From the NCBI RefSeq assembly GCF_003072485.1, contig NZ_CP025989.1, positions 660,001 to 692,000 of the forward strand: a DNA stretch of 32,000 nucleotides, in the 5' to 3' direction. Shown here in pieces: positions 2,286 to 26,862 of this stretch; the first letter of the stretch is position 1, and each line of letters starts with the position of its first letter. A program made the position numbers and the translations under genes. Under the pieces are notes generated by a model. The model did no database searches, was not told the DNA's origin, and saw nothing but the letters and a program-made list of their open reading frames with translations. The stretch comes from Candidatus Fokinia solitaria (GTDB lineage Bacteria > Pseudomonadota > Alphaproteobacteria > Rickettsiales > Midichloriaceae).

Positions 2286-5147
2286 ATGCAGAACTCAGAT
2301 CACACAAGTACTTTCAAGAAAAAGATAGAGAAACAGCAGAAAAAAACGCAGCTTTTGGAACAACAAATTCAACAACTAGAAGACGAAATACAAAAGAAAG
2401 ATGAAATGATAAAAAAGACGAGTGATTCAATAATGAAAAAAATGAAGGATTTTATCTTAAGAAGACCTAAGAATTTAGACTTAGAAGCAAAGAGAAAAAA
2501 AATAAAGACAGAAAAAGCATTACTTCAAAAAGATGTTAAGATAGCGCAAGCAGAAGAGAAAAAATATCGCTATAACAAAGTAAAAAAGCTTAAGAAGCAA
2601 CAAAAAATAGCAGATGAAATAAAATCCGAAAATTTTACATTAGAAGATTTAAAAAATTCTAAGACCTTGGAAAAAATACAAACAGAAATGAATGACATAA
2701 CGAAGAAAGTGCAAGATGCAGGAGGGCAGTCGAAGATCTCAAAAGATTACAAGAACAAAGCAAAGGAAATACAGAACTTAGACAGTAAGCGTGCTGAGCT
2801 GGAAAAATTAGATACTGAGCTGAAAAAACTACTCGGACCAGTAAAGAGACAAGCTCCACTCGGTGCATCGCAATTCTCACAACTCGATATGAATAATGCA
2901 CAAAACTCGCAACTTAATGCGGGTAAAGCGCAAGAAGAACAATTTGATAATCAATCTAAAATAAGTAGCTTGCAAATTTCACAATTCGATATGAGTAAAG
3001 CGCAATCATTCCAACTTAGTGCAGATAATTTGCAAAAGTCACAAAGATCAGCGGTACAAAAACAAAACAGCGCTCCAAGTGCTATAGCACAGGGACAAGA
3101 AATGGAGATACAAAATCTTTCGCAAGAAGCTATTCAAAAAGAGGCTATTCAGCAAAAATTCGATACTCTTGATAAGGAAATTCAAGAACTAGCAAAGATA
3201 AAGGAACTTTATGAATTATCTCAGAGAGAAAAACAATTAAAAACAGTTCAAACGGCTATTGAAAAGTATATTAAACTTGAAGAGGAAAAAGCCACTTTAA
3301 AAGCACGATATAAACAATCGAAACCACAGCAGCAAGAGCAGCAAATACAAGAAGAATCACAAATACAGCAAGAGCAACAATCACGTAGAACATCAGAATT
3401 ATCACAGAAGTCACGAGTATCACAAAATAGAAAATCGACGTTGGTAGAAATATCAGATGAAGAAGCCGAACAGCTGCTGAAAAAGCGAAACCCGAAATCA
3501 CAGCAAAAAAAGCAATTACAGCGGGCAAAATCGGAAATTCAGCCACAATCGAAAATCCAGCAGCTACAGAAAGAAGACCAATCGCAAGTGCTACCACAGC
3601 GGTCACTATCACAATCGGCAACGCAACAGCAAAAAGAGCAATTACAGCAGGAGCAGCAACAGCAAGAAAAGCAATTACAGCAGTCGCTATCACAGCCACT
3701 ATCAGAAATACAGCAAGAAAAGCAATTACGGGAGTCAAAATCAGAAATACAGCAAGAAAAGCAAGAAGAGCAATTACAGCAGGAGCAGCCACAACTTAAA
3801 AGAGGCACAACGATGGATGATTACGCAAGAAAAGTCATTGAAACGATAGGCCCTTCACGTTATTCACCGTCTTTTGAGAAATTCTGTACTAGAGAAAATA
3901 TGGATTACATAATCAAAGTTTTAAAGAAAGACGGGAAATTCAACTCTCTATCAGATGCAGAAAAAAATGAATCGATAATAAACGTAGGTGTTACACTCGC
4001 AGCACAAGCAGCTATAAACTCGAATGGATTAAAAGGAAATGCAGCAGATCTCTCTCGAGACGATCAAATTGCACTATTAGAGTACATGAGAGGTAAAGGG
4101 ATATGTACCCAAATATTAAGTTCTCCGGAACAATTAGAAAGAGCAGTAAAATACGATCCGTATGAGGTTTTAGACAAAAAAGATAGAGATAGGCCAAATT
4201 TTCTTAGCAAAGCTATATTAAAAACAGACGCCAAGGAAAGAATTAATGAAGACACATCCGGAAAAAAATTCGCTGCATATATTGCGGGATACATTGCACT
4301 CGGACCTTTAGGATTATTAATTGCAATAATTTTTGCAAAATATTATTTATCTAAAGCAAAACGCCGTGAAGGAAAGGATATACGCGCGCTTCTCGATGCA
4401 AAACAGAATTATCGTCCAGCACCGGAAGGAAATTCAACGCAAAAAAATAGTCAAGCACTACAGCAAGATGTAAACAATATAAAATCGGAAAACACAGTAC
4501 TAGGGCAAAAAACAAAAGACCAGGTACAGAATGAATTGCACGAATTACTACAAAATAAACAATTTACGTCCTCTGAATTACTGAAACAAGCTATGCAAGC
4601 AATCAAAATAGCGGAAAAAATTCAAAAATATGATACAGAAAACCCCAACTCTTTTGAGGCACGCAAATTGGCAAAACCGTTAGAAGAGCTTATCGCAGAA
4701 CTTGTACAGAAAGGGCGAGAAAGATTAAAACGCGGTACAGATGATGACGGAGCGCTACGGTTGACAGAAAGTGAAATAGCACAGGATAAAATTTCACAAA
4801 AGAAGCTCGATGAAATAGAAGCGCAAGTCAATAATCTAGTGCAGAAGAAGGAAATTCCATCACAAATTCGCAATGAAGAGAGTGACTTTCTTAATAAAAG
4901 CTCGAATAGTATCATTGTAAATCAAAGCAGATTGTCAGAACGCTTTTCTCTTGACCTGAATGAAATCTCAGCTATTCAAAAAGGGGAAGGCGAAATACTT
5001 GCAAAAGATACCAACTCGCGAAACAATAGCATAATAAAGATACTTGAAGGAATGAATCTGCCTAATGCAGTAAACCGCTCGCAATCAGTTGACATAAGCA
5101 AAACATCATCACACGGCAGCAATGATAAATTCAGACATCACTCCTAG
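2286..5147 (+). CDS. Large K/E/Q-rich coiled-coil/low-complexity protein with one TM helix; orphan, putative surface or effector protein
   Basis: 953-aa ORF; the only competing ORFs are low-complexity shadow frames. There is no N-terminal signal peptide. It has a Q-rich block, a short globular-looking region, and a TM helix FAAYIAGYIALGPLGLLIAIIFAKYYL (nt about 4270-4350). No family recognised. Confidence 0.75.
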   Translation: MQNSDHTSTFKKKIEKQQKKTQLLEQQIQQLEDEIQKKDEMIKKTSDSIMKKMKDFILRRPKNLDLEAKRKKIKTEKALLQKDVKIAQAEEKKYRYNKVKKLKKQQKIADEIKSENFTLEDLKNSKTLEKIQTEMNDITKKVQDAGGQSKISKDYKNKAKEIQNLDSKRAELEKLDTELKKLLGPVKRQAPLGASQFSQLDMNNAQNSQLNAGKAQEEQFDNQSKISSLQISQFDMSKAQSFQLSADNLQKSQRSAVQKQNSAPSAIAQGQEMEIQNLSQEAIQKEAIQQKFDTLDKEIQELAKIKELYELSQREKQLKTVQTAIEKYIKLEEEKATLKARYKQSKPQQQEQQIQEESQIQQEQQSRRTSELSQKSRVSQNRKSTLVEISDEEAEQLLKKRNPKSQQKKQLQRAKSEIQPQSKIQQLQKEDQSQVLPQRSLSQSATQQQKEQLQQEQQQQEKQLQQSLSQPLSEIQQEKQLRESKSEIQQEKQEEQLQQEQPQLKRGTTMDDYARKVIETIGPSRYSPSFEKFCTRENMDYIIKVLKKDGKFNSLSDAEKNESIINVGVTLAAQAAINSNGLKGNAADLSRDDQIALLEYMRGKGICTQILSSPEQLERAVKYDPYEVLDKKDRDRPNFLSKAILKTDAKERINEDTSGKKFAAYIAGYIALGPLGLLIAIIFAKYYLSKAKRREGKDIRALLDAKQNYRPAPEGNSTQKNSQALQQDVNNIKSENTVLGQKTKDQVQNELHELLQNKQFTSSELLKQAMQAIKIAEKIQKYDTENPNSFEARKLAKPLEELIAELVQKGRERLKRGTDDDGALRLTESEIAQDKISQKKLDEIEAQVNNLVQKKEIPSQIRNEESDFLNKSSNSIIVNQSRLSERFSLDLNEISAIQKGEGEILAKDTNSRNNSIIKILEGMNLPNAVNRSQSVDISKTSSHGSNDKFRHHS
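3330..3795. repeat. Cryptic CAG/CAA-rich low-complexity repeats inside the 953-aa ORF
   Basis: Reiterated modules include tcagaaatacagcaagaaaagcaa (twice, about 3703 and 3739) and gagcaattacagcaggagcagc (twice, about 3636 and 3768). They encode SEIQQEKQ / EQLQQEQ units. Confidence 0.6.
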
Positions 5148-5216: not shown

Positions 5217-6338
5217 TTACTGCTGCAATAATTTTTGCAGAGTTACTTTATCATTCTCTTGAATTGCGTCTATAAACTCATTTTCCGTTATCGTTCTGAT
5301 AGCTTTTTCTTGAAATAGAAGTAAGATAATCAGTTCTGATATCTTAGATGAGGGAGTGCTACGTAGCGCTTTGATCAGATCGCTTTTTTGCTTATTCGAT
5401 AGAAATATATGCAATTCAAGCATTGCGTTCATCACTTCTGCATCTGAGGAAAATTGTAAGCATATTTGATGTAAAGTGGAAAGTTTCACATAATATGATT
5501 GCAACCAACGCAACGCTGCAATATCAAGAGTTGTTTCAAGATTGACGCGATAATAGAAATGACGTTCACGAAAAAGAAGATAATGTGCTATATCCAACAA
5601 TGCGATATCATTTTCAAAAGGAAAAAATACTTTTATTTCTTCTTCTGAAACGCTTATTCTGCACACATTAATATGCTTTTTATCCGACAAATCAAACACA
5701 TCACATTCGTGTTGTGCGCTAATACACATTTTTTCAATAGCATTCACTATCTCCATTCTACTCGTGCAAAGAATAATATGAGTACTCAGTAGTGAATCAG
5801 GACAGCCAAGTAGGATTGTAAGCTGTAGCCTATTCTTGGATAGCAAATACAGCCAAAAACTCTGCTTTTCCTGCTCTGAAGGAGAATAAGAATGAAATAA
5901 GGCAATATGTCGCGCAACCGATGGTGATTCAAAAAAGCGTCTTGTTTTCATATTTTTCTTCAAACCGCTTCCTATAACAGCAATAAACGTATTACGCGAT
6001 GGAGTGGAGATATGCTTACTCAGACGCTGAGACAACTCAGCAGAGATATCATTTGAAACAGAATCTATCACTATTAATTTATTCTCTTTTTTCTGACCAA
6101 ATAAGCTATAAGATCTCGTAACTTCATTTAGCAATTCTGGCTCCGCGTTCAATTGCTTGAAATTGATCTCATGTATCGAGAGAGTACCTCCATTTGCTGC
6201 AGCTTGAGACTTCAATTTACTTTTAAGTACCGACAATATAAAACACACTCCTCCATACTCTTCTCCAAAAGCAAACCATAAATTTTTTAGATTTTCTGCA
6301 TTAATCTCGCGTTCTAAACTATGATGTAGGTATTTCAT
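5217..6338 (-). CDS. Possible DNA polymerase III delta subunit (HolA-like); weak call
   Basis: 373-aa ORF that starts 1 nt after the ffh stop. NLWFAFGEEYGG resembles the N-terminal yLlyGeE block of delta subunits. SLFGQKKENKLIVID resembles the slFg..rlvvv block. The overall length and helical C-terminal half fit. By-eye similarity only. Confidence 0.4.
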   Translation of the reverse strand: MKYLHHSLEREINAENLKNLWFAFGEEYGGVCFILSVLKSKLKSQAAANGGTLSIHEINFKQLNAEPELLNEVTRSYSLFGQKKENKLIVIDSVSNDISAELSQRLSKHISTPSRNTFIAVIGSGLKKNMKTRRFFESPSVARHIALFHSYSPSEQEKQSFWLYLLSKNRLQLTILLGCPDSLLSTHIILCTSRMEIVNAIEKMCISAQHECDVFDLSDKKHINVCRISVSEEEIKVFFPFENDIALLDIAHYLLFRERHFYYRVNLETTLDIAALRWLQSYYVKLSTLHQICLQFSSDAEVMNAMLELHIFLSNKQKSDLIKALRSTPSSKISELIILLLFQEKAIRTITENEFIDAIQENDKVTLQKLLQQ

Positions 6339-7719: not shown

Positions 7720-7943
7720 AATGATGAAGTCTTGGCATACTCAGTACGCTCACATTACTACATATTTTATTCATAAATCAATATAGCATCAATTTGAAAT
7801 CTCGTATGTATTCGCATGACAGCTATAATCGCACTCGCAATTTCTTCTTATCTGCAATTTCTTCTCGTTTAATCTTCAAGGAAATATATTTCATGTAATA
7901 TTCATATTGACTCTCGTAGAGAAAAATTCCACTCACTTGAGTA

Positions 7944-7972
7944 TTGTAACGATCATGAGTCTGTAATATAAT
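7944..7972 (+). promoter_or_regulatory. Sigma70-like promoter candidate for the small ORF at 7999
   Basis: TTGTAA (7944-7949), a 17-nt spacer, then a perfect TATAAT (7967-7972), 27 nt upstream of the ATG. Confidence 0.35.
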
Positions 7973-7998
7973 TCTCATGTTCGTTATTCAGTTTTGAA

Positions 7999-8220
7999 AT
8001 GGCCATGTCAAAGAAAATCACTGCTTCCAAGAACAATATCGCAATGCGCGGTAAAAAAGCTGCTCTTAGGAAAATCGGGGACAAGACTGTGAGTCCTGTA
8101 CTATATCATGGTATAAAGCTGGGACATGGTACTTATATGGCTGCGCAATTTGAAGACGGTCAGTTAGCACTTGACACTTCTGGTAGACCGATTCCATATA
8201 ATGCTGCTGCACAGCAGTAA
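7999..8220 (+). CDS. Small hypothetical protein (73 aa), basic N-terminus
   Basis: This is the only ORF in an 817-bp gap between ffh and murA. It has a promoter-like element upstream and a strong hairpin immediately downstream. No family recognised. Confidence 0.5.
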   Translation: MAMSKKITASKNNIAMRGKKAALRKIGDKTVSPVLYHGIKLGHGTYMAAQFEDGQLALDTSGRPIPYNAAAQQ

Positions 8221-8221
8221 T

Positions 8222-8256
8222 GACAGTAAGTGAGGTAGCAACGCTACTTCACTGTC
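8222..8256 (+). terminator. Stem-loop directly after the small ORF stop (no clear T-tract)
   Basis: GACAGTAAGTGAGGTAGC-aac-GCTACTTCACTGTC forms about 10-11 contiguous pairs (8229-8239 with 8243-8253) plus 3 outer pairs. Confidence 0.35.
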
Positions 8257-8536
8257 CAAGAAGAGATATCTGGAGGTATTTACAAGTTGTATTTATCACT
8301 TCTACGCTATTTGTCTTAGTTCTCTAAGTAGGATTATCGCAGATCAGAGTATTGTTTATACAGTTGCAAAGTTCGAAGAGAAAACAAAGTACGATGAAAT
8401 TTCCGTTATACATTTTCTAGATAGAGAATGGACACAGCGGATAATCGCTTTCTCCGCATGAGTTCCTTCGCGATTTGTATTCCGCTTTCGGCTAGTTTGA
8501 CGATGAAAAATCGTTCAGTTGCGCGATATATCAGTT

Positions 8537-9883
8537 CTATTGTTCTCTTGTTATTTCGAGAGTAGTATTTTTTAGTCTTTGCGGTATATTTCCGTACCCT
8601 CTTTCCAACTTGTCTGCATCGTCTAATATAGTATCGCCTTTTGCAAGAACTGCTGCAATAAGATAAGCTAATCCAGCTCTGATATCAGGTACAACTATAG
8701 GCTCTTTCAATGCGTGCAGTTCCGTTTTACCTTTTACTATCGCACTATGCGGATGATAGTATCCTCTATAACGACAATTTGAGCTACCAAGACATGAGTG
8801 AAATATAGAAATATCAGCACCTAATTGATTCAACATATCAGTATAACCTAGTCTATTTTCATATACCGTCTCATGCACTACTGAAGTGCCACGCGCTTGA
8901 GTTAGCATTACAGTAAACGGTTGCTGCCAATCAGTAGAAAAGCCTGGATATACGTCTGTTTCAAGCACAAGTGGCGATATTACGCTATTATATTCGCTAT
9001 AAAATCGTATTGAATTTTCTGAAAGAATTTCGAATCTACCTCCTGCCATATTCAAATACGACAGAAAGATACCAAGAAGCTCAGGATTAATCCCTTGCAA
9101 CGTAATATCACTACCTCTTACAGTGCATGCAAGTAACGCCCACGATACCGCTTCTATTCTATCTCCTATAACATGAAAATTCACGCCTTTTAACTGCTTT
9201 ACTCCATGCACAATCAACTCTCGATTCGGATTGATGAAGATCACAGCGCCCATGCATCTTAACATGGAAATTAAATGCATTATTTCCGGTTCCATCGCTA
9301 TGTTTTTTATGACACTCATACCATCAGCTAATACAGCTAGAAATAAGCATGTCTCAGTAGCGCCAACTGAAGGATATGGAAGAGTAAAATGAGTACCAGA
9401 CAATTTATGATTTTTACGCGCACGAAAGCAATTATTACCGACCTCTACCTCTCCGTTAAACATTCTTATAGCTTCAACGTGAAAATCGACTTTTCTTTTA
9501 CCAATCTCATCACCCGTAATAGTAGGCACTTCTACTTCATCGAACAATTGTAATAATACGCTAAGAAGCAATATCGGAATTCTATTTGTAGCAGAATCCG
9601 GCAATACAACTATTGCTTTAGATATAGAACGAGGATCGATCGTCACTTTACCAAAGTGAGAGTTATCATCTCTATCAAACTTCACATCAGCACCTGTCAT
9701 CTCTATCATTTTTCTTGTAATCTCTACGTCTCCGATATATGGCATATTCCACAAAGTACTCTCAGTACTACCAAGCATCGATGCAAGCATCACTTTTGTT
9801 GCAAGATTTTTAGCACCTAAGCATTGTATATTACCTATAATTGGAGTACCGCCGCGTATTTTATACCTTATTTTCGTTGTCAT
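8537..9883 (-). CDS. murA: UDP-N-acetylglucosamine 1-carboxyvinyltransferase MurA (Asp in place of the catalytic-loop Cys)
   Basis: 448 aa. It has GAKNLATK (Lys22 region), the loop ITGDEIGKRKVDFH, STDWQQP and PDIRAGLA. It is collinear with E. coli MurA by eye. Confidence 0.9.
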   Translation of the reverse strand: MTTKIRYKIRGGTPIIGNIQCLGAKNLATKVMLASMLGSTESTLWNMPYIGDVEITRKMIEMTGADVKFDRDDNSHFGKVTIDPRSISKAIVVLPDSATNRIPILLLSVLLQLFDEVEVPTITGDEIGKRKVDFHVEAIRMFNGEVEVGNNCFRARKNHKLSGTHFTLPYPSVGATETCLFLAVLADGMSVIKNIAMEPEIMHLISMLRCMGAVIFINPNRELIVHGVKQLKGVNFHVIGDRIEAVSWALLACTVRGSDITLQGINPELLGIFLSYLNMAGGRFEILSENSIRFYSEYNSVISPLVLETDVYPGFSTDWQQPFTVMLTQARGTSVVHETVYENRLGYTDMLNQLGADISIFHSCLGSSNCRYRGYYHPHSAIVKGKTELHALKEPIVVPDIRAGLAYLIAAVLAKGDTILDDADKLERGYGNIPQRLKNTTLEITREQ

Positions 9884-10425
9884 CGTTTCTTCTTTTCATA
9901 TTTACGATTTTTGACAGGATAAGAAGTAAAGACGTATAATCCGATATCATCATCCCGTGCAGTAGCTTTTAGCACAACATTCGCACGTTTTAAATTCATT
10001 TTCTCACCATCATTCTGAATACCGAAGCCTATTTCCTTAGATGCGTCCGTAGTGACAAGCAATGAGGCTTTCTTTCTTTTATCGCCATTTTCCTTTACTT
10101 TTCCGATATTTTCTAACCATTCACATATTTTATCCTTATTCTCTTTTAATGCTTTTCGGATAGTTTCATTTGCAGATTCTTCGCTAAAGTACGTCGATAC
10201 AAAGCTTACACTTCTACAATGCATTTTACTTTTCAGCCATTTTTCACTTTTTCCAATGTGCTCTGAATATGTATGAGAAAAAAACATACGATCATTTTCA
10301 CTGACGTCAAATTTTGCAGCATACTGCAGCAATTTTCCTTCACATACCGTCTTCTTCTCTTCTGCTAGACTAACGGTAGCGGTGCATACCGATAATGCTA
10401 GTAATGCATATATTAATCTTTTCAT
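9880..10425 (-). CDS. Signal-peptide protein with bacterial RNase A-like (CdiA-CT / RNAse_A_bac type) toxin domain
   Basis: 181 aa. The leader is MKRLIYALLALSVCTATVSLA followed by EEKK. The mature part has SHTYSEHIGKSEKWLKSKM ... ANETIRKALKENKDKICEWL ... ANVVLKA ... LYVFTSYP. This matches my remembered pattern of the family (GHT..RHVGKt...L..R ... a...l..n...i..Wl ... vvl ... y.lTaYP). The stop overlaps the murA start as ATGA. Confidence 0.55.
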   Translation of the reverse strand: MKRLIYALLALSVCTATVSLAEEKKTVCEGKLLQYAAKFDVSENDRMFFSHTYSEHIGKSEKWLKSKMHCRSVSFVSTYFSEESANETIRKALKENKDKICEWLENIGKVKENGDKRKKASLLVTTDASKEIGFGIQNDGEKMNLKRANVVLKATARDDDIGLYVFTSYPVKNRKYEKKKR

Positions 10426-10628
10426 ATTACTTGCGATATTTCCTTTCTCTTTTACATTAGCTTGCTTCTCCTTTCTATAATTACTTGAGAGTACTCATAC
10501 ATTTTTCAAGTATTTGTCGTAAATTTTCTCTCATCATAAAACAACGGAGTGCATTTCAACTTCTCAAGATTATTGTGCTACATGTAAACAATATCGTTGT
10601 ATATAAGCATTTAAACTAGTAAATGTGC

Positions 10629-11000
10629 GCACGTAGTATATAAGCCGAGTTCTGTAGTGCTAATAGCACCGAGAGTCATTTCTCTAGCCTTGCCGTCTCC
10701 AGCAAGTTCCAGCGATCTACCCTAGAACAATTACTCTCAGAAGAGGAGAGGCAAGAAATAAATCTTGCATGTTCTGCTACTTGATCTTGCTTCAAATGGG
10801 GTTTGCAATGCAAATCTCGTCACCGAGATCACGGTAAGCTCTTACCTCACCTTTTCACCCTTACCATAAAGGCGGTATATTTTCTGTTGCACTTTCCCTT
10901 AGGCATTAATACCTAGCTAGGCATTACCTAGCATTTTTCTTCAGCGAAGCTCGGACTTTCCTCTATACTTTAAAAGTATAGCGACTCTCCAACTACGTAC
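10629..11000 (-). ncRNA. rnpB: RNase P RNA, bacterial type A
   Basis: The minus strand reads ...AGAGGAAAGTCCGAGCTTCG... (P4 5' strand), AAGTGCAACAGAAAATATACCGCC, and GGTAAGGGTGAAAAGGTGAGGTAAGAGCTTACC. It also has ACAGAACTCGGCTTAT (P4 3' strand, with a change compensatory to the 5' strand). A P1 helix joins GTACGTAGT (about 11000-10992) to ACTACGTGC (10637-10629). The ends are approximate. Confidence 0.9.
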
Positions 11001-11034
11001 CTACTTATTGTACATGAACTGCTTTCTGATGCAA

Positions 11035-11460
11035 TCATTGCACATCTACTTGCTTTGTATATTTTCGCATAAGTGCACTGAATGCCCGTAAATAGTCGCG
11101 ATACAAAGTATCGATATCGGATACTGCTGCTTCTTTACGCAAGATGAGTACAATATAGATCGTTTTATCAGCTAACTTATGCAATTTCGCATGCTTTCTC
11201 GCTACCTCTCGAACTAACCTCTTCACATGGTTGCGAAGTACAGCGTTGCCGACACGTTTACTTGTGACGGTACCAAAGTAATATCCACAACGAGTTGCAG
11301 TATTTTTCACATCCATGAACATTACAAAGCTTGATACTATAAATCTCTTAGCATCATGTAATATGGATTTTATCGAATATTCAGACTCTTTAATCAATGC
11401 AAAATGAGACGATCGCTGCAGTGAAGAACTTGCAGGCATTCTCGCGACTCTAAATTTCAT
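11035..11460 (-). CDS. rnpA: RNase P protein component
   Basis: The block FGTVTSKRVGNAVLRNHVKRLVREVAR matches the RNR-motif region of RnpA (..a..RNr.KR..Re..). ATG at 11460 is preferred over the TTG at 11463 listed in the ORF track. Confidence 0.8.
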   Translation of the reverse strand: MKFRVARMPASSSLQRSSHFALIKESEYSIKSILHDAKRFIVSSFVMFMDVKNTATRCGYYFGTVTSKRVGNAVLRNHVKRLVREVARKHAKLHKLADKTIYIVLILRKEAAVSDIDTLYRDYLRAFSALMRKYTKQVDVQ

Positions 11461-11468
11461 CAAAATAT

Positions 11469-12587: not shown

Positions 12588-12845
12588 CTACCTTTTTATA
12601 ATATTTTTCTCCGTACACAAGGACATCAGTTTAGCGACTCTTTTCGAGACCTGTGCACCTTGTGAAATCAGAAACTCTGCTTTCTCAAGATCTATCTTAA
12701 ATTTATCTGATGGTTCGCAATTTAACACAGGATTATAATATCCGAGATTATATTTAAATTTACCATCTCTCGGCGCTCTGACATCAGCGGCAACAATACG
12801 GAAAGGCTTTCCTCTGGTACGCGCTAACCTAATCTTTAAAGACAT
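12588..12845 (-). CDS. rpsP: 30S ribosomal protein S16
   Basis: The internal ATG at 12845 gives [39 protein letters not shown]..., a typical S16. The longer ORF-track start (13022) would read through the tRNA. Confidence 0.9.
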
Positions 12846-12875
12846 ACTAATTACGTGAATTATTATTTTGTCACG

Positions 12876-12958
12876 TACCTCTGACTGGACTCGAACCAGC
12901 ACATCCGCAAAGACAGCAGATTTTGAGTCTGCCGCGTCTACCATTCCGCCACAGAGGC
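12876..12958 (-). tRNA. tRNA-Leu (anticodon CAA)
   Basis: The minus strand reads GCCTCTG-TG-GCG-GAATGGTAGA-CGC-G-GCAGA-CTCAAAA-TCTGC-(long variable arm)-GCTGG-TTCGAGT-CCAGT-CAGAGGT-A. It folds as a cloverleaf with a 7-bp acceptor stem, a T-loop TTCGAGT and a class II variable arm. No CCA is encoded. Confidence 0.9.
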
Positions 12959-12967
12959 ATATATTGG

Positions 12968-12996
12968 ATACTATACCAAAACTGTAAGGACTGCAA
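12968..12996 (-). promoter_or_regulatory. Sigma70-like promoter candidate just upstream of tRNA-Leu
   Basis: The minus strand has TTGCAG (12996-12991), a 17-nt spacer, then TAGTAT (12973-12968), about 9 nt before the tRNA 5' end. Confidence 0.3.
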
Positions 12997-13068
12997 TAAA
13001 CACATTCACTAAGCTGCAACAATCAGATATTATCATATAAACTTGCTTTTGAATCATATGCAAAGTTA

Positions 13069-23942: not shown

Positions 23943-24065
23943 GTGTTGCAAGTTGTGTTGTGATTATCTAGCATACGCATGTTTTAATTCTCATGTGTAG
24001 ATATGCCTCTGCTGATCTTGTGCTTTGCAGTGTGTGCATCGCTAATAACTCCCCTTCTTCAAAGC
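23943..24065 (+). repeat. Partial (123 bp) copy of the promoter + leader module
   Basis: It aligns to 26203-26325 and 27019-27141 without gaps, with about 5 mismatches to copy C by eye. Similarity ends right after the leader (caaagc). Confidence 0.85.
23946..23974 (+). promoter_or_regulatory. Cassette promoter, copy B
   Basis: TTGCAA (23946-23951), a 17-nt spacer, then TAGCAT (23969-23974), 28 nt before the ATG at 24003. Confidence 0.45.
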
Positions 24066-26066
24066 GATGCAGCGATAAAGCCAAATAAATTTCGCACTTA
24101 TTCTAACAATAATCATGGTAATGATGAGCTTTATAATGCAATAGTGCAAGCGGCTATCGCTAGAGAGTTCAGCCAGCCATTACCACCTACTCAGCATGAA
24201 CAGGAACTGCTAGATTTGGCGCAAGCTAAGCATGATGCTGAAGTTGAAAATCTGAAAGAAGATAATAAAAGGAAAGAAGCGGCGAGAAAAGAAGCAGCTG
24301 AAATAGCAAAATGGGAAAGGTTAAAGGCGGCAGCAGACGCTGAGAAAGCAAAATCAGAAAAATTGAAGGCAGATTCAGATGCGAGGAAAGCAATAGAAGA
24401 GAAGATAAAAAATATAGCAAAAGATGCACAATATATATCAGTTATAGATGACATTGAGGCGAATAAAGTGAAAATGATGAGAATACTAAAGAGAAATCCA
24501 GAAATGCTGGAGAAAATGCAGAATGATTCTGCGTTAGAAGAGTATATAAATAAAATAATGAGTGACGCCTATAATACTGAAACTAAAAGATATGAATTTA
24601 ATATAGGGAGTCTTGCGACATTTTATACTAAGTATGGCCTTGAAAGGGAAGATGCTAGAGAGCTAGCGTGGTTATGTAGAAGAATTTTAAAAGAAACTGG
24701 CTTTTTGATGGCTGTTACAAGAGCGAAAGGCGATATCATTAGTGAGCGATATAATACACTAGATCTTGAAACATTGATGATGGAGATTAGAGAGAATAAA
24801 AGTGATATGATAGATACTTATTTGCAAAGAGTAAGGACGGCAACACTGACGCAGATGACAGGTGAATTATTATCATTAAAAGAAAGGGGCGTTATATCGC
24901 AGAAAAGATATGACGGCATAATTGAAGATATATTTCCAGAAAACAGTATACTATCTCCTTATTCACAAGAGATGTATGAAGAACTTACTAATAAAAAACA
25001 TGCTTCATATGGAACAAAGGAAGCGCGGGAGGAATATGATATTAATTACGAGGAAGGAAAAGAGAACGATGAACGGCAAGAGGATAATGTATCAGCTGTA
25101 GTAGCTAATATGAATAATAATGATGGTAACGATGTTACTGATGATACTATTACTGGAGGAGACGGAGATAATGGCGGTGATAATATCGTTAACAATCCTC
25201 CGGCTAACAATAACGATGGCGGTAGTATCAAGAATAATAAAATTAATAGCGCGCATCCTATAGGAATGGACAATGATACGGCCAATGCTATGGCGGATGC
25301 TAAGAGTATTATTAATGCGAAGAACTTTCGAGATTTACCAGGTGGACAAATAGCAAGCGCAATAGCAAAATCAGCGACAAAAGCCGCTATTGAATTACCA
25401 ACAGCACCTGATCAGATTATTCGTTTTGTTGGAGATTTAATACAACGAGGAGTAAAAGGGAAGAAAAATTTTAAGCCAATGAGGCCAGTATTAGATTACG
25501 CATTAGATGCTTCGGATAAAGCATTACCAGGTATAAGTAAGACATTAAGGCCTCTTGCAGATGTGTTCTCTTTAGAAGGGCAGGCTAGATTGGCGAAAGA
25601 GGTAGGACTAGAGGATAATTTAGGACTGACTCGAGAGGAGAAAGATAATCCTATAGCGAATACAGCTGCACATATAGCGGATTTCGCTGTAGGGTATGGT
25701 AAATTAAATACTCCATTAAAAGCGATGAAAGCTATAAATCCGACTGTAGCATTAAACGTATTTCGAAAAGATATCCCGAACGCACTAAAGGAAGGCGGTA
25801 AGATAGCCAAAGATGTTGGATCATGGATCGGAAGTAAAGGAGAGAATTTACCTAAAGTATGGCAAGGAATTAAAAAAGCAAAAGAAGGGATGACATCGGC
25901 ACTAAGAGAGACGGTTAAATCAAAGGGTACAAATATAGCAGAGATGGTAGCGCGAAGTAAAATAATACCACATTCTCTACTTAATGCTGCGAAAGGCGCG
26001 GGTAAAATACTAGTATATGAAGTAGCACGTGGCAATCTCAAAGGAGATGATATCTATGTACTATAG
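24003..26066 (+). CDS. Secreted large protein, family member B (leader, K/E/A coiled coil, N/D/G-rich linker, unknown C-terminal region)
   Basis: 687-aa ORF with the leader MPLLILCFAVCASLITPLLQSDA. The antisense ORFs within it are shadows. No family recognised. Confidence 0.8.
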   Translation: MPLLILCFAVCASLITPLLQSDAAIKPNKFRTYSNNNHGNDELYNAIVQAAIAREFSQPLPPTQHEQELLDLAQAKHDAEVENLKEDNKRKEAARKEAAEIAKWERLKAAADAEKAKSEKLKADSDARKAIEEKIKNIAKDAQYISVIDDIEANKVKMMRILKRNPEMLEKMQNDSALEEYINKIMSDAYNTETKRYEFNIGSLATFYTKYGLEREDARELAWLCRRILKETGFLMAVTRAKGDIISERYNTLDLETLMMEIRENKSDMIDTYLQRVRTATLTQMTGELLSLKERGVISQKRYDGIIEDIFPENSILSPYSQEMYEELTNKKHASYGTKEAREEYDINYEEGKENDERQEDNVSAVVANMNNNDGNDVTDDTITGGDGDNGGDNIVNNPPANNNDGGSIKNNKINSAHPIGMDNDTANAMADAKSIINAKNFRDLPGGQIASAIAKSATKAAIELPTAPDQIIRFVGDLIQRGVKGKKNFKPMRPVLDYALDASDKALPGISKTLRPLADVFSLEGQARLAKEVGLEDNLGLTREEKDNPIANTAAHIADFAVGYGKLNTPLKAMKAINPTVALNVFRKDIPNALKEGGKIAKDVGSWIGSKGENLPKVWQGIKKAKEGMTSALRETVKSKGTNIAEMVARSKIIPHSLLNAAKGAGKILVYEVARGNLKGDDIYVL

Positions 26067-26360
26067 CACGCCATTCTGAGGGATATAAGTGGTGGGAAAA
26101 CAGTTATCTCATACGATAATGGTACTCTGACAATTCGCAGTCATTTCCATCACTACCCTCTTCTACAAACTCAGACTGATACGGTATTTTATGATTATCT
26201 GAGTATTGCAAGTTGTGTTGTGATTATCTAGCATACGCATGCTTTAATTCTCATGTGTAGACATGCCTCTACTGATCTTGTGCTTTGCAGTGTGTGCATC
26301 GCTGATAACTCCCCTTCTTCAAAGCCACGCAATCACGAAAACTGAGATTTCATATAGTGC
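26057..26360 (+). repeat. 304-bp direct repeat, copy 1 (tail + 18-mer + promoter + leader + first about 9 mature codons)
   Basis: It aligns to 26873-27176 at a constant offset of 816 bp with no indels and 9 mismatches by eye (about 97 percent identity). Confidence 0.95.
26206..26234 (+). promoter_or_regulatory. Cassette promoter, copy C
   Basis: TTGCAA (26206-26211), a 17-nt spacer, then TAGCAT (26229-26234), 28 nt before the ATG at 26263. Confidence 0.45.
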
Positions 26361-26862
26361 TTCTGAAGATGCTGCTTCTGAAGAGAAGTTGATTAAGCTG
26401 TACGATGAAGCGATCTCGCTATTAAATCAGCTCATAGAAAGTACCAGGGAACACACTTCACTCCTAGAACAAGATATTGAACTAGAGAAAGTGTTAACGC
26501 TTTGTAAGAAGCGGACAGGACGAGATAACTGGCAGTACTGGTCTAATAATGCCATATATTCTCTTTGCCAAGAAAAACGTGATTCACAAATAGCACTACG
26601 GAAGAAAAAGATTCAGCTGTTGGAGTACTATAAACAAATGTGCCATAAAGAGAAGGAAGTAAGAGAACAAATTCATAACATCTATAGTGCTATGGCTAGC
26701 AACGAAAGAGAAATAGTACGAGAGAAGCGAGCAAAGGCAATCTTTTTGGCAAAGCAGTGGGATAATGAAATCTCGCAACACGATCGGCAAGTTGACTTAT
26801 TAAAGAAAAATATAAAAGAATATGAAACAGAACTACTAAAATATGGTTACGTCTTTGAGTAG
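26263..26862 (+). CDS. Secreted helical protein, family member C
   Basis: 199-aa ORF with the leader MPLLILCFAVCASLITPLLQSHA/ITKTEISYS. The mature part is charged and helical-looking and cannot be aligned by eye to B or D. Confidence 0.75.
   Translation: MPLLILCFAVCASLITPLLQSHAITKTEISYSASEDAASEEKLIKLYDEAISLLNQLIESTREHTSLLEQDIELEKVLTLCKKRTGRDNWQYWSNNAIYSLCQEKRDSQIALRKKKIQLLEYYKQMCHKEKEVREQIHNIYSAMASNEREIVREKRAKAIFLAKQWDNEISQHDRQVDLLKKNIKEYETELLKYGYVFE

Follow-up and report, generated by a model that had tools for sequence, protein, structure and literature searches.

A stand-alone RNase A-like protein with a probable Sec signal in the Paramecium endosymbiont Candidatus Fokinia solitaria

The bacterial RNase A-like family PF18431 (RNAse_A_bac) was founded on CdiA-CT(Ykris) (PDB: 5E3E), the C-terminal toxin of a Yersinia kristensenii contact-dependent growth inhibition (CDI) protein, and mutagenesis showed that His175, Arg186, Thr276 and Tyr278 are required for its RNase activity (Batot et al. 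2017, PMC5435912). Ribocin (RbcN, PA14_21120/PA3318) from Pseudomonas aeruginosa is a protein of 166 amino acids (aa) that carries a Sec signal and adopts an RNase A-like fold; the mutations H60A, T159A and Y161A abolish cleavage, and K75 has been proposed as the fourth catalytic residue (PLoS Biol 2026, PMC13189344). It cuts eukaryotic 25S/28S rRNA at helix 69 (H69), with bacterial H69 left uncut according to its authors, and it reaches the host cytoplasm and ribosomes though it carries only a Sec signal (PMC13189344). Stand-alone prokaryotic RNase A/EndoU open reading frames (ORFs) have also been surveyed, for example that of the archaeon Thermococcus sp., WP_099209516, which has a putative signal peptide (Mushegian et al. 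2020, PMC7297114). Here we describe the gene Fsol_00614 in a 32,000-nucleotide (nt) stretch, the window, of Candidatus Fokinia solitaria (contig NZ_CP025989.1, positions 660,001–692,000). This bacterium is a Midichloriaceae (Rickettsiales) endosymbiont of Paramecium whose genome was, as of 2018, the smallest on record among Rickettsiales (PMC5905368). A first-pass annotation had interpreted the product of a 181-aa ORF at 9880–10425 as an RNase A-like protein with a leader and no immunity gene. That interpretation is supported by family, fold and residues; the ORF list confirms the ORF, on the minus strand, and the sequence details given for it (leader, motif, C terminus and cysteine count) are all correct. 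The encoded protein begins MKRLIYALLALSVCTATVSLA and matches the NCBI entry Fsol_00614 at 100% identity. Fsol_00614 adds a new, uncharacterised protein to a known family, its architecture is already on record, and it is a plausible candidate for a host-directed enzyme. Our preferred reading, to which we give a rough probability of 0.55, is that it is an exported RNase acting on host RNA. The features of the gene, in window coordinates, are as follows.

9880–10425, minus strand: RNase A-like gene Fsol_00614, a 181-aa ORF plus stop codon, PF18431 match of 72 bits.
10363–10425, minus strand: predicted Sec signal peptide, residues 1–21, reading MKR, then LIYALLALSVCTATVSL, then SLA/EE (the slash marks the predicted cleavage site).
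10279–10362, minus strand: N-terminal extension of the mature protein, residues 22–49, with the motif I..Y...FD[IV]...D and including C28.
9916–10278, minus strand: catalytic domain (PF18431), residues 50–170, from Pfam, the subfamily profile and Foldseek.
10258–10260, minus strand: H56 codon, the counterpart of catalytic His175 in CdiA-CT(Ykris); the residue is present in all 22 subfamily members.
10225–10227, minus strand: K67 codon, equivalent to Arg186, 11 residues after H56 and aligned with the R of NRV in 5E3E.
9919–9927, minus strand: T167-S168-Y169 codons, equivalent to Thr276-Gly-Tyr278 and aligned with ITGYP of 5E3E.

Fsol_00614 is a genuine PF18431 RNase A-like protein. The Pfam match (E = 8e-20, 72.2 bits against a cut-off of 27) covers the whole profile, positions 1–113 of 113, over residues 50–170, and the family named in the first-pass annotation was the right one. 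A single-sequence search of the PDB barely reached 5E3E (E = 0.2); a profile of 22 close relatives matched 5e3e_B at E = 3e-20 over chain residues 2–113. The AlphaFold2 model, built from the 22-member alignment, had a mean predicted local distance difference test score (pLDDT) of 88.5 and a predicted template modelling (TM) score of 0.81. When this model was compared with the PDB by Foldseek, the only significant matches were the Y. kristensenii chains 5e3e_B and 5e3e_D (E = 5e-8, target-normalised TM 0.86, root mean square deviation 2.7 Å, 20% identity); every other structure gave E > 0.1.

The motif SHTYSEHIGKSEKWL, spanning residues 50–64, and the sequence ...VVLK...LYVFTSYP close to the C terminus are both present in the translation, and the proposed active-site set (H56, K67, T167 and Y169) falls in register with His175, Arg186, Thr276 and Tyr278. 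H56 was aligned with the second His of GHLIDRH in 5E3E. The K67 column is Arg in most of the 22 subfamily members, making Lys a conservative change, and T167, S168 and Y169 are at least 90% conserved across the subfamily. The codons of all four residues, H56 and K67 as listed above and T167 (9925–9927) and Y169 (9919–9921), were checked by hand against the sequence. The replacement of Arg186 by Lys, together with a 16-residue insertion found in Fokinia relative to its relatives (approximately residues 105–120, pLDDT 73), would fit a protein that has kept the RNase fold, lost catalysis and now binds RNA or serves as a structural envelope component. We consider this improbable: the four catalytic positions are kept or conservatively substituted, H56 is invariant in the subfamily, and Lys fills the same role in RNase A (Lys41; PMC5435912) and is proposed to do so in Ribocin (K75). 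The sequence and the model instead suggest a catalytically competent, metal-independent, cyclising RNase. By the mechanism proposed for CdiA-CT(Ykris), His56 would transfer protons, Lys67 would stabilise the transition state and the site would be completed by Thr167 and Tyr169.

Fsol_00614 thus shares with CdiA-CT(Ykris) the Pfam family, the fold and the register of the His, the basic residue 11 positions later and T-x-Y-P. It nevertheless stands alone and brings its own Sec signal, whereas the toxin forms the tip of a CdiA of several thousand residues. It has no cytoplasm-entry domain, CdiI or CdiB, it has Lys in place of Arg186, and it carries an extra, subfamily-specific 28-residue extension, which lies outside the Pfam domain, is conserved over the 22 stand-alone relatives and was modelled as helical (pLDDT 85–97); the motif shared by the nearest relatives reads I..Y...FD[IL]...D. 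Ribocin resembles Fsol_00614 in its small, stand-alone form (166 versus 181 aa), Sec signal, RNase A-like fold and H/K/T-x-Y-P layout; 5E3E is the closest solved structure to both, and each is encoded by a bacterium living with a eukaryotic host. The basic residue of Ribocin follows the His by 15 positions, whereas in Fsol_00614 the distance is 11, and the Ribocin target (H69) has been demonstrated, whereas for Fsol_00614 a target can only be proposed. Membership of Fsol_00614 in a Ribocin family was rejected at the level of sequence: Ribocin has no Pfam match, and hhalign gave a probability of 2% over 11 columns, with only the TxYP strand aligned. Ribocin is retained as a structural analogue and as the nearest precedent in function. 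The ORFs surveyed by Mushegian et al. (PMC7297114) have the same stand-alone, signal-bearing architecture with a PF18431-related domain, but they come from other lineages, were mentioned in a sequence survey and have no link to an obligate endosymbiont.

Judged by its features, the N terminus of Fsol_00614 is probably a cleavable Sec signal. The leader claimed by the first-pass annotation is supported by sequence features, namely the positive n-region MKR, followed by 17 hydrophobic core residues and by a c-region (SLA/EE) in which positions −3 and −1 are small, and this layout is kept in Candidatus Fokinia crypta, where the site reads VGLA/EE. Equivalent small-x-small sites followed by an acidic residue were aligned in the relatives, one of which is named "exported hypothetical protein" by NCBI. 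Residues 1–20 of the model have low pLDDT (62–63). The mature part contains three cysteines (C28, C70 and C101), as had been counted; C28 and C101 are kept in F. crypta and the relatives have other Cys pairs, a pattern that, as far as sequence can indicate, fits an extracytoplasmic protein. The NCBIfam model NF041883, "RNase A-like domain-containing lipoprotein" (168 positions), likewise describes stand-alone, exported proteins with the same domain, and all 22 subfamily members match it weakly. A lipoprotein reading of Fsol_00614 based on this RNase_A_lipo match was rejected, as the match reaches 47.3 bits against a cut-off of 200 and LSV/C is a non-canonical lipobox; because C14 is Phe in F. 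crypta and there is no lipobox, Fsol_00614 is not a lipoprotein and represents a different clade. We propose that the protein would be exported unfolded over the inner membrane by Sec and would fold only outside the bacterial cytoplasm, where a C28–C101 disulfide could form after export.

The genes next to Fsol_00614 are the following.

8537–9883, minus strand: murA, with an ATG that overlaps the RNase stop codon (ATGA); EPSP_synthase match, 6e-50.
10625–11000, minus strand: rnpB (RNase P RNA), Rfam RF00010, 272.8 bits.
11035–11463, minus strand: rnpA (RNase P protein), PF00825, 1e-13, directly upstream of rnpB.

The overlap of the RNase stop codon with the murA start, described in the first-pass annotation, was confirmed because the plus strand reads TCAT at 9880–9883, which is ATGA on the coding strand, and the identity of murA was confirmed by Pfam. 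The rnpB gene, which had been placed about 200 nt upstream, ends 199 nt before the RNase gene ATG, and rnpA and pdhA lie further upstream on the same strand. The order pdhA, rnpA, rnpB, RNase gene, murA is identical in F. crypta, with the same 4-nt overlap between the RNase gene and murA (locus L001, 8001–8555 and 8552–9898), and the F. crypta ortholog is 66–67% identical to Fsol_00614. The pair has a dN/dS of 0.13, alongside 0.03 for murA, 0.08 for ffh, 0.10 for pdhA, 0.12 for a neighbouring 373-aa ORF and 0.22 for rnpA, all of them approximate because dS is 1.3–1.9 and near saturation. The RNase gene is under purifying selection and its synteny is conserved across the two Fokinia species. 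Its GC content (0.35–0.365) resembles that of the flanks (approximately 0.34–0.42) and the genome (35.8%); with this match and a position shared with F. crypta, there is no sign of recent acquisition, and recent horizontal insertion was rejected. A conserved promoter between rnpB and the RNase gene was also rejected, as the intergenic sequences from the two species gave a poor alignment apart from the part just 5' of the ATG, and promoter and terminator scans were at background level. In both species, rnpA and rnpB are 34 nt apart (window 10625–11463, minus strand; L001 6907–7742). The rnpA gene usually neighbours rpmH and yidC, and adjacency of the two RNase P subunit genes is an unusual arrangement.

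Relatives were collected by an exhaustive profile search over 1.84 billion representative proteins (E ≤ 1e-3), which returned 82, the best matches being 149–237 aa long. Among 91 relatives examined, 44 were short with a hydrophobic, signal-like N terminus and 24 were short without a clear one; the domain was located at the end of a long protein in 19 and at the N terminus in 4. Some of the short, signal-bearing relatives come from GC-rich organisms, and the closest relatives of Fsol_00614 are all stand-alone. The stand-alone form is therefore common in the family, and Fsol_00614 is neither an oddity nor a new kind of system. The nearest taxon-labelled relatives are from a 1.08 Mb chromosome named "Ca. 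Midichloriaceae bacterium", a metagenome-assembled genome (MAG) labelled Fokinia solitaria, an "Alphaproteobacteria bacterium" and Lyticum sinuosum, an endosymbiont of Paramecium; the closest of these, namely the 1.08 Mb chromosome (itself a MAG), the Fokinia-labelled MAG and Lyticum, belong to Midichloriaceae. The proteins of F. crypta and Lyticum are already auto-annotated as "RNase A-like domain-containing protein", and a search of one literature library found no paper on this gene in Fokinia or Midichloriaceae.

At all nine other loci, the RNase A-like gene stands alone amid housekeeping genes. Two Midichloriaceae MAGs have a trio of DUF2793, RNase gene and fliR (L002, 5622–7484; L003, 5516–7450; also L004 and L006); fliR encodes a flagellar type III export component. 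In the MAG "Candidatus Fokinia solitaria isolate HRS-ES7-bin-76", the copy is only about 30% identical to Fsol_00614 and lies in a different synteny with fliR, though no flagella have been seen on Fokinia, so the species label is probably wrong. Three loci from AT-rich genomes have the order RNase gene, secA, ribE (L009, 5001–8516; L010, 2792–6274; L014, 4001–7571), with an ABC transporter upstream of the RNase gene in two of the three; one of these genomes has, as a neighbouring gene, a member of the Rickettsia 17-kDa antigen family, and it also has an ankyrin-repeat gene. In Lyticum sinuosum (GCA_034471385.1; L012, 4001–4693), a 230-aa stand-alone member lies between an aminoacyl-tRNA synthetase gene and dxr. 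The remaining loci show two further arrangements. Lyticum is a "killer" symbiont of Paramecium, and a link between its RNase and the killer trait is pure speculation.

The founding of PF18431 on a CDI toxin (PMC5435912) and the location of the domain at the C terminus of long proteins in 19 of the 91 relatives raise a second alternative, in which Fsol_00614 is an orphan antibacterial toxin, the remnant or free-standing tip of a polymorphic toxin, used on bacteria that share the host cell. Potential targets can be envisaged, since another symbiont lives alongside a related Fokinia species in the cytoplasm of Paramecium (PMC5118934). The locus itself makes this very unlikely. The absence of a delivery domain claimed in the first-pass annotation holds: in 181 aa, only the signal peptide and the 28-residue extension precede the catalytic domain, and there is no pretoxin or entry domain. 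So does the absence of an immunity gene, as the 199-nt upstream gap and the downstream side hold only short antisense ORFs and murA follows immediately with its 4-nt overlap. Pfam scans of 20 ORFs in the window gave housekeeping families only, with four ORFs unmatched, and no CdiB, type VI secretion system (T6SS), Rhs or immunity families in the 32 kb. With a delivery domain, an immunity gene and neighbouring secretion genes all lacking in the window, Fsol_00614 does not group with the CDI, Rhs, T6SS or type VII secretion system polymorphic toxins. Both Fokinia species have the gene in the same place and under purifying selection, and its closest relatives are all stand-alone. Polymorphic toxin/immunity cassettes swap rapidly, unlike this conserved Fokinia gene.

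An immunity partner was also sought at ten loci by comparing 150 small ORFs, each no further than 1.5 kb from the RNase gene, all against all, and no partner ORF recurred across genera; the matches were antisense shadows of conserved genes and DUF2793 in two related MAGs. Three kinds of candidate were rejected. The antisense and gap ORFs are short and, where conserved, are shadows of coding or rnpB sequence; a 67–70 aa ORF over the RNase end and secA start (L010 and L011) has no counterpart in L009; and DUF2793 is found only in the two Midichloriaceae MAGs and is absent from the Fokinia window and the other loci. A reading as an anti-phage defence gene was rejected as well, as there were no PADLOC matches in the window. 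An immunity protein may be unneeded, because the RNase would not fold in the cytoplasm of its producer and lacks any domain for re-entry or translocation. Other folds are represented among secreted or periplasmic RNases by Escherichia coli RNase I (T2 family), Bacillus barnase with its inhibitor barstar, and SrnA, the type II-secreted T2 RNase of Legionella. All three are Sec-exported, non-specific, cyclising RNases active outside the cytoplasm, and SrnA aids intracellular growth in amoebae; their folds and catalytic residues are unrelated to those of Fsol_00614. Barnase requires intracellular barstar, whereas no counterpart was seen for Fsol_00614.

That the gene survives in a genome of 837 kb, from which the Krebs cycle and nucleotide synthesis have disappeared, argues for an important function. 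In the host cytoplasm, Fokinia is naked and surrounded by a rim free of host ribosomes (PMC4701390), and it makes no nucleotides (PMC5905368). Because of this location and this deficiency, host RNA is the most likely substrate. On the preferred reading of an exported, host-directed RNase, the enzyme would leave the periplasm and meet host rRNA, tRNA or mRNA, and its role, by analogy with Ribocin, could be nucleotide scavenging or local modulation of host translation. Several points weigh against this. The dN/dS ratios given above are only approximate. Ribocin's target specificity is not transferable to Fsol_00614, because there is no detectable sequence homology between them. The scavenging version would need extra steps, since ATP/ADP translocases do not accept the 2',3'-cyclic or 3'-phosphates that RNase A-type cleavage yields. 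The ribosome-free rim is no more than a correlate, and similar halos occur around other cytoplasmic Rickettsiales.

The inability to synthesise nucleotides would also suit an RNase that never enters the host cytoplasm in folded form. Such a purely periplasmic scavenging enzyme, like E. coli RNase I, would degrade RNA fragments or oligonucleotides that enter via porins. The protein carries a Sec signal only, with none found in Fsol_00614 for an outer-membrane secretion system, and the gene is housekeeping-like in lying on the same strand as murA, rnpB and rnpA and overlapping murA. However, entry of large RNAs into the periplasm is unlikely, the window showed no partner enzyme of the periplasmic 2',3'-cyclic phosphodiesterase or 3'-nucleotidase type, and Ribocin, which also has only a Sec signal, reaches host ribosomes. 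We regard the periplasmic explanation as possible though on the unlikely side.

The 3' end of the RNase gene also contains a candidate regulatory element on the opposite strand.

9911–9940, plus strand: possible antisense promoter opposite the 3' end of the RNase gene, with the perfect sigma-70 consensus TTGACA-18-TATAAT.

This is the sole perfect sigma-70 consensus in the window, where 0.03 would be expected by chance, and it sits in the codons for GLYVFTSYPVK. The equivalent F. crypta site (TTAGCA-18-TATAAT) matches at 10 of 12 positions with equal spacing. Conservation of the site is inseparable from the coding constraint on the catalytic-motif codons. As judged from its sequence, the site could drive a regulatory antisense RNA. 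A broader version of the preferred reading can be formulated, in which Midichloriaceae (Fokinia, Lyticum and uncultured relatives) would use their stand-alone, Sec-exported PF18431 proteins as a lineage-conserved family of host-directed RNase effectors. These would cut ciliate rRNA or tRNA in a Ribocin-like or angiogenin-like manner, feed the nucleotide-auxotrophic symbiont or damp host translation locally and make the ribosome-free rim, and an antisense transcript might replace an immunity factor. We put this forward tentatively, as a proposal that is more doubtful than likely.

Other observations concern the rest of the window. The gap of approximately 800 nt between ffh and murA (7720–8536), with GC down to 0.29 in part, has no ORF of at least 100 aa and no Rfam match; the equivalent gap in F. 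crypta has a 71-aa ORF on the opposite strand (L001, 10301–10516) with no Pfam match. The four ORFs without a Pfam match (E ≤ 0.01) are at 2286–5147 (plus strand, 953 aa), 5217–6338 (minus strand, 373 aa), 24003–26066 (plus strand, 687 aa) and 26263–26862 (plus strand, 199 aa); given the very small genome, they are candidates for proteins specific to the lineage. PADLOC also gave no match for the 953-aa and 373-aa ORFs, and the latter is kept in F. crypta (70% identity, with the dN/dS of 0.12 given above). A 144-aa ORF at 12588–13022 (minus strand) overlaps a tRNA gene at 12876–12958; the true gene here is probably that for ribosomal protein S16, with an internal start codon, because F. crypta has rpsP (85 aa) between the tRNA and pdhA.

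If Fsol_00614 is only a periplasmic scavenging enzyme, the result is a routine annotation upgrade from "hypothetical protein". In either case, well-defined stand-alone members are added to the bacterial RNase A/PF18431 side, which bears on the debate over the origin of vertebrate RNase A (PMC7297114). If the protein acts on host RNA, the Ribocin principle, in which RNase A-fold enzymes exported by Sec alone and without an immunity protein are directed against eukaryotic RNA, would extend to obligate endosymbionts of protists, and Rickettsiales biology would gain a concrete, testable effector.

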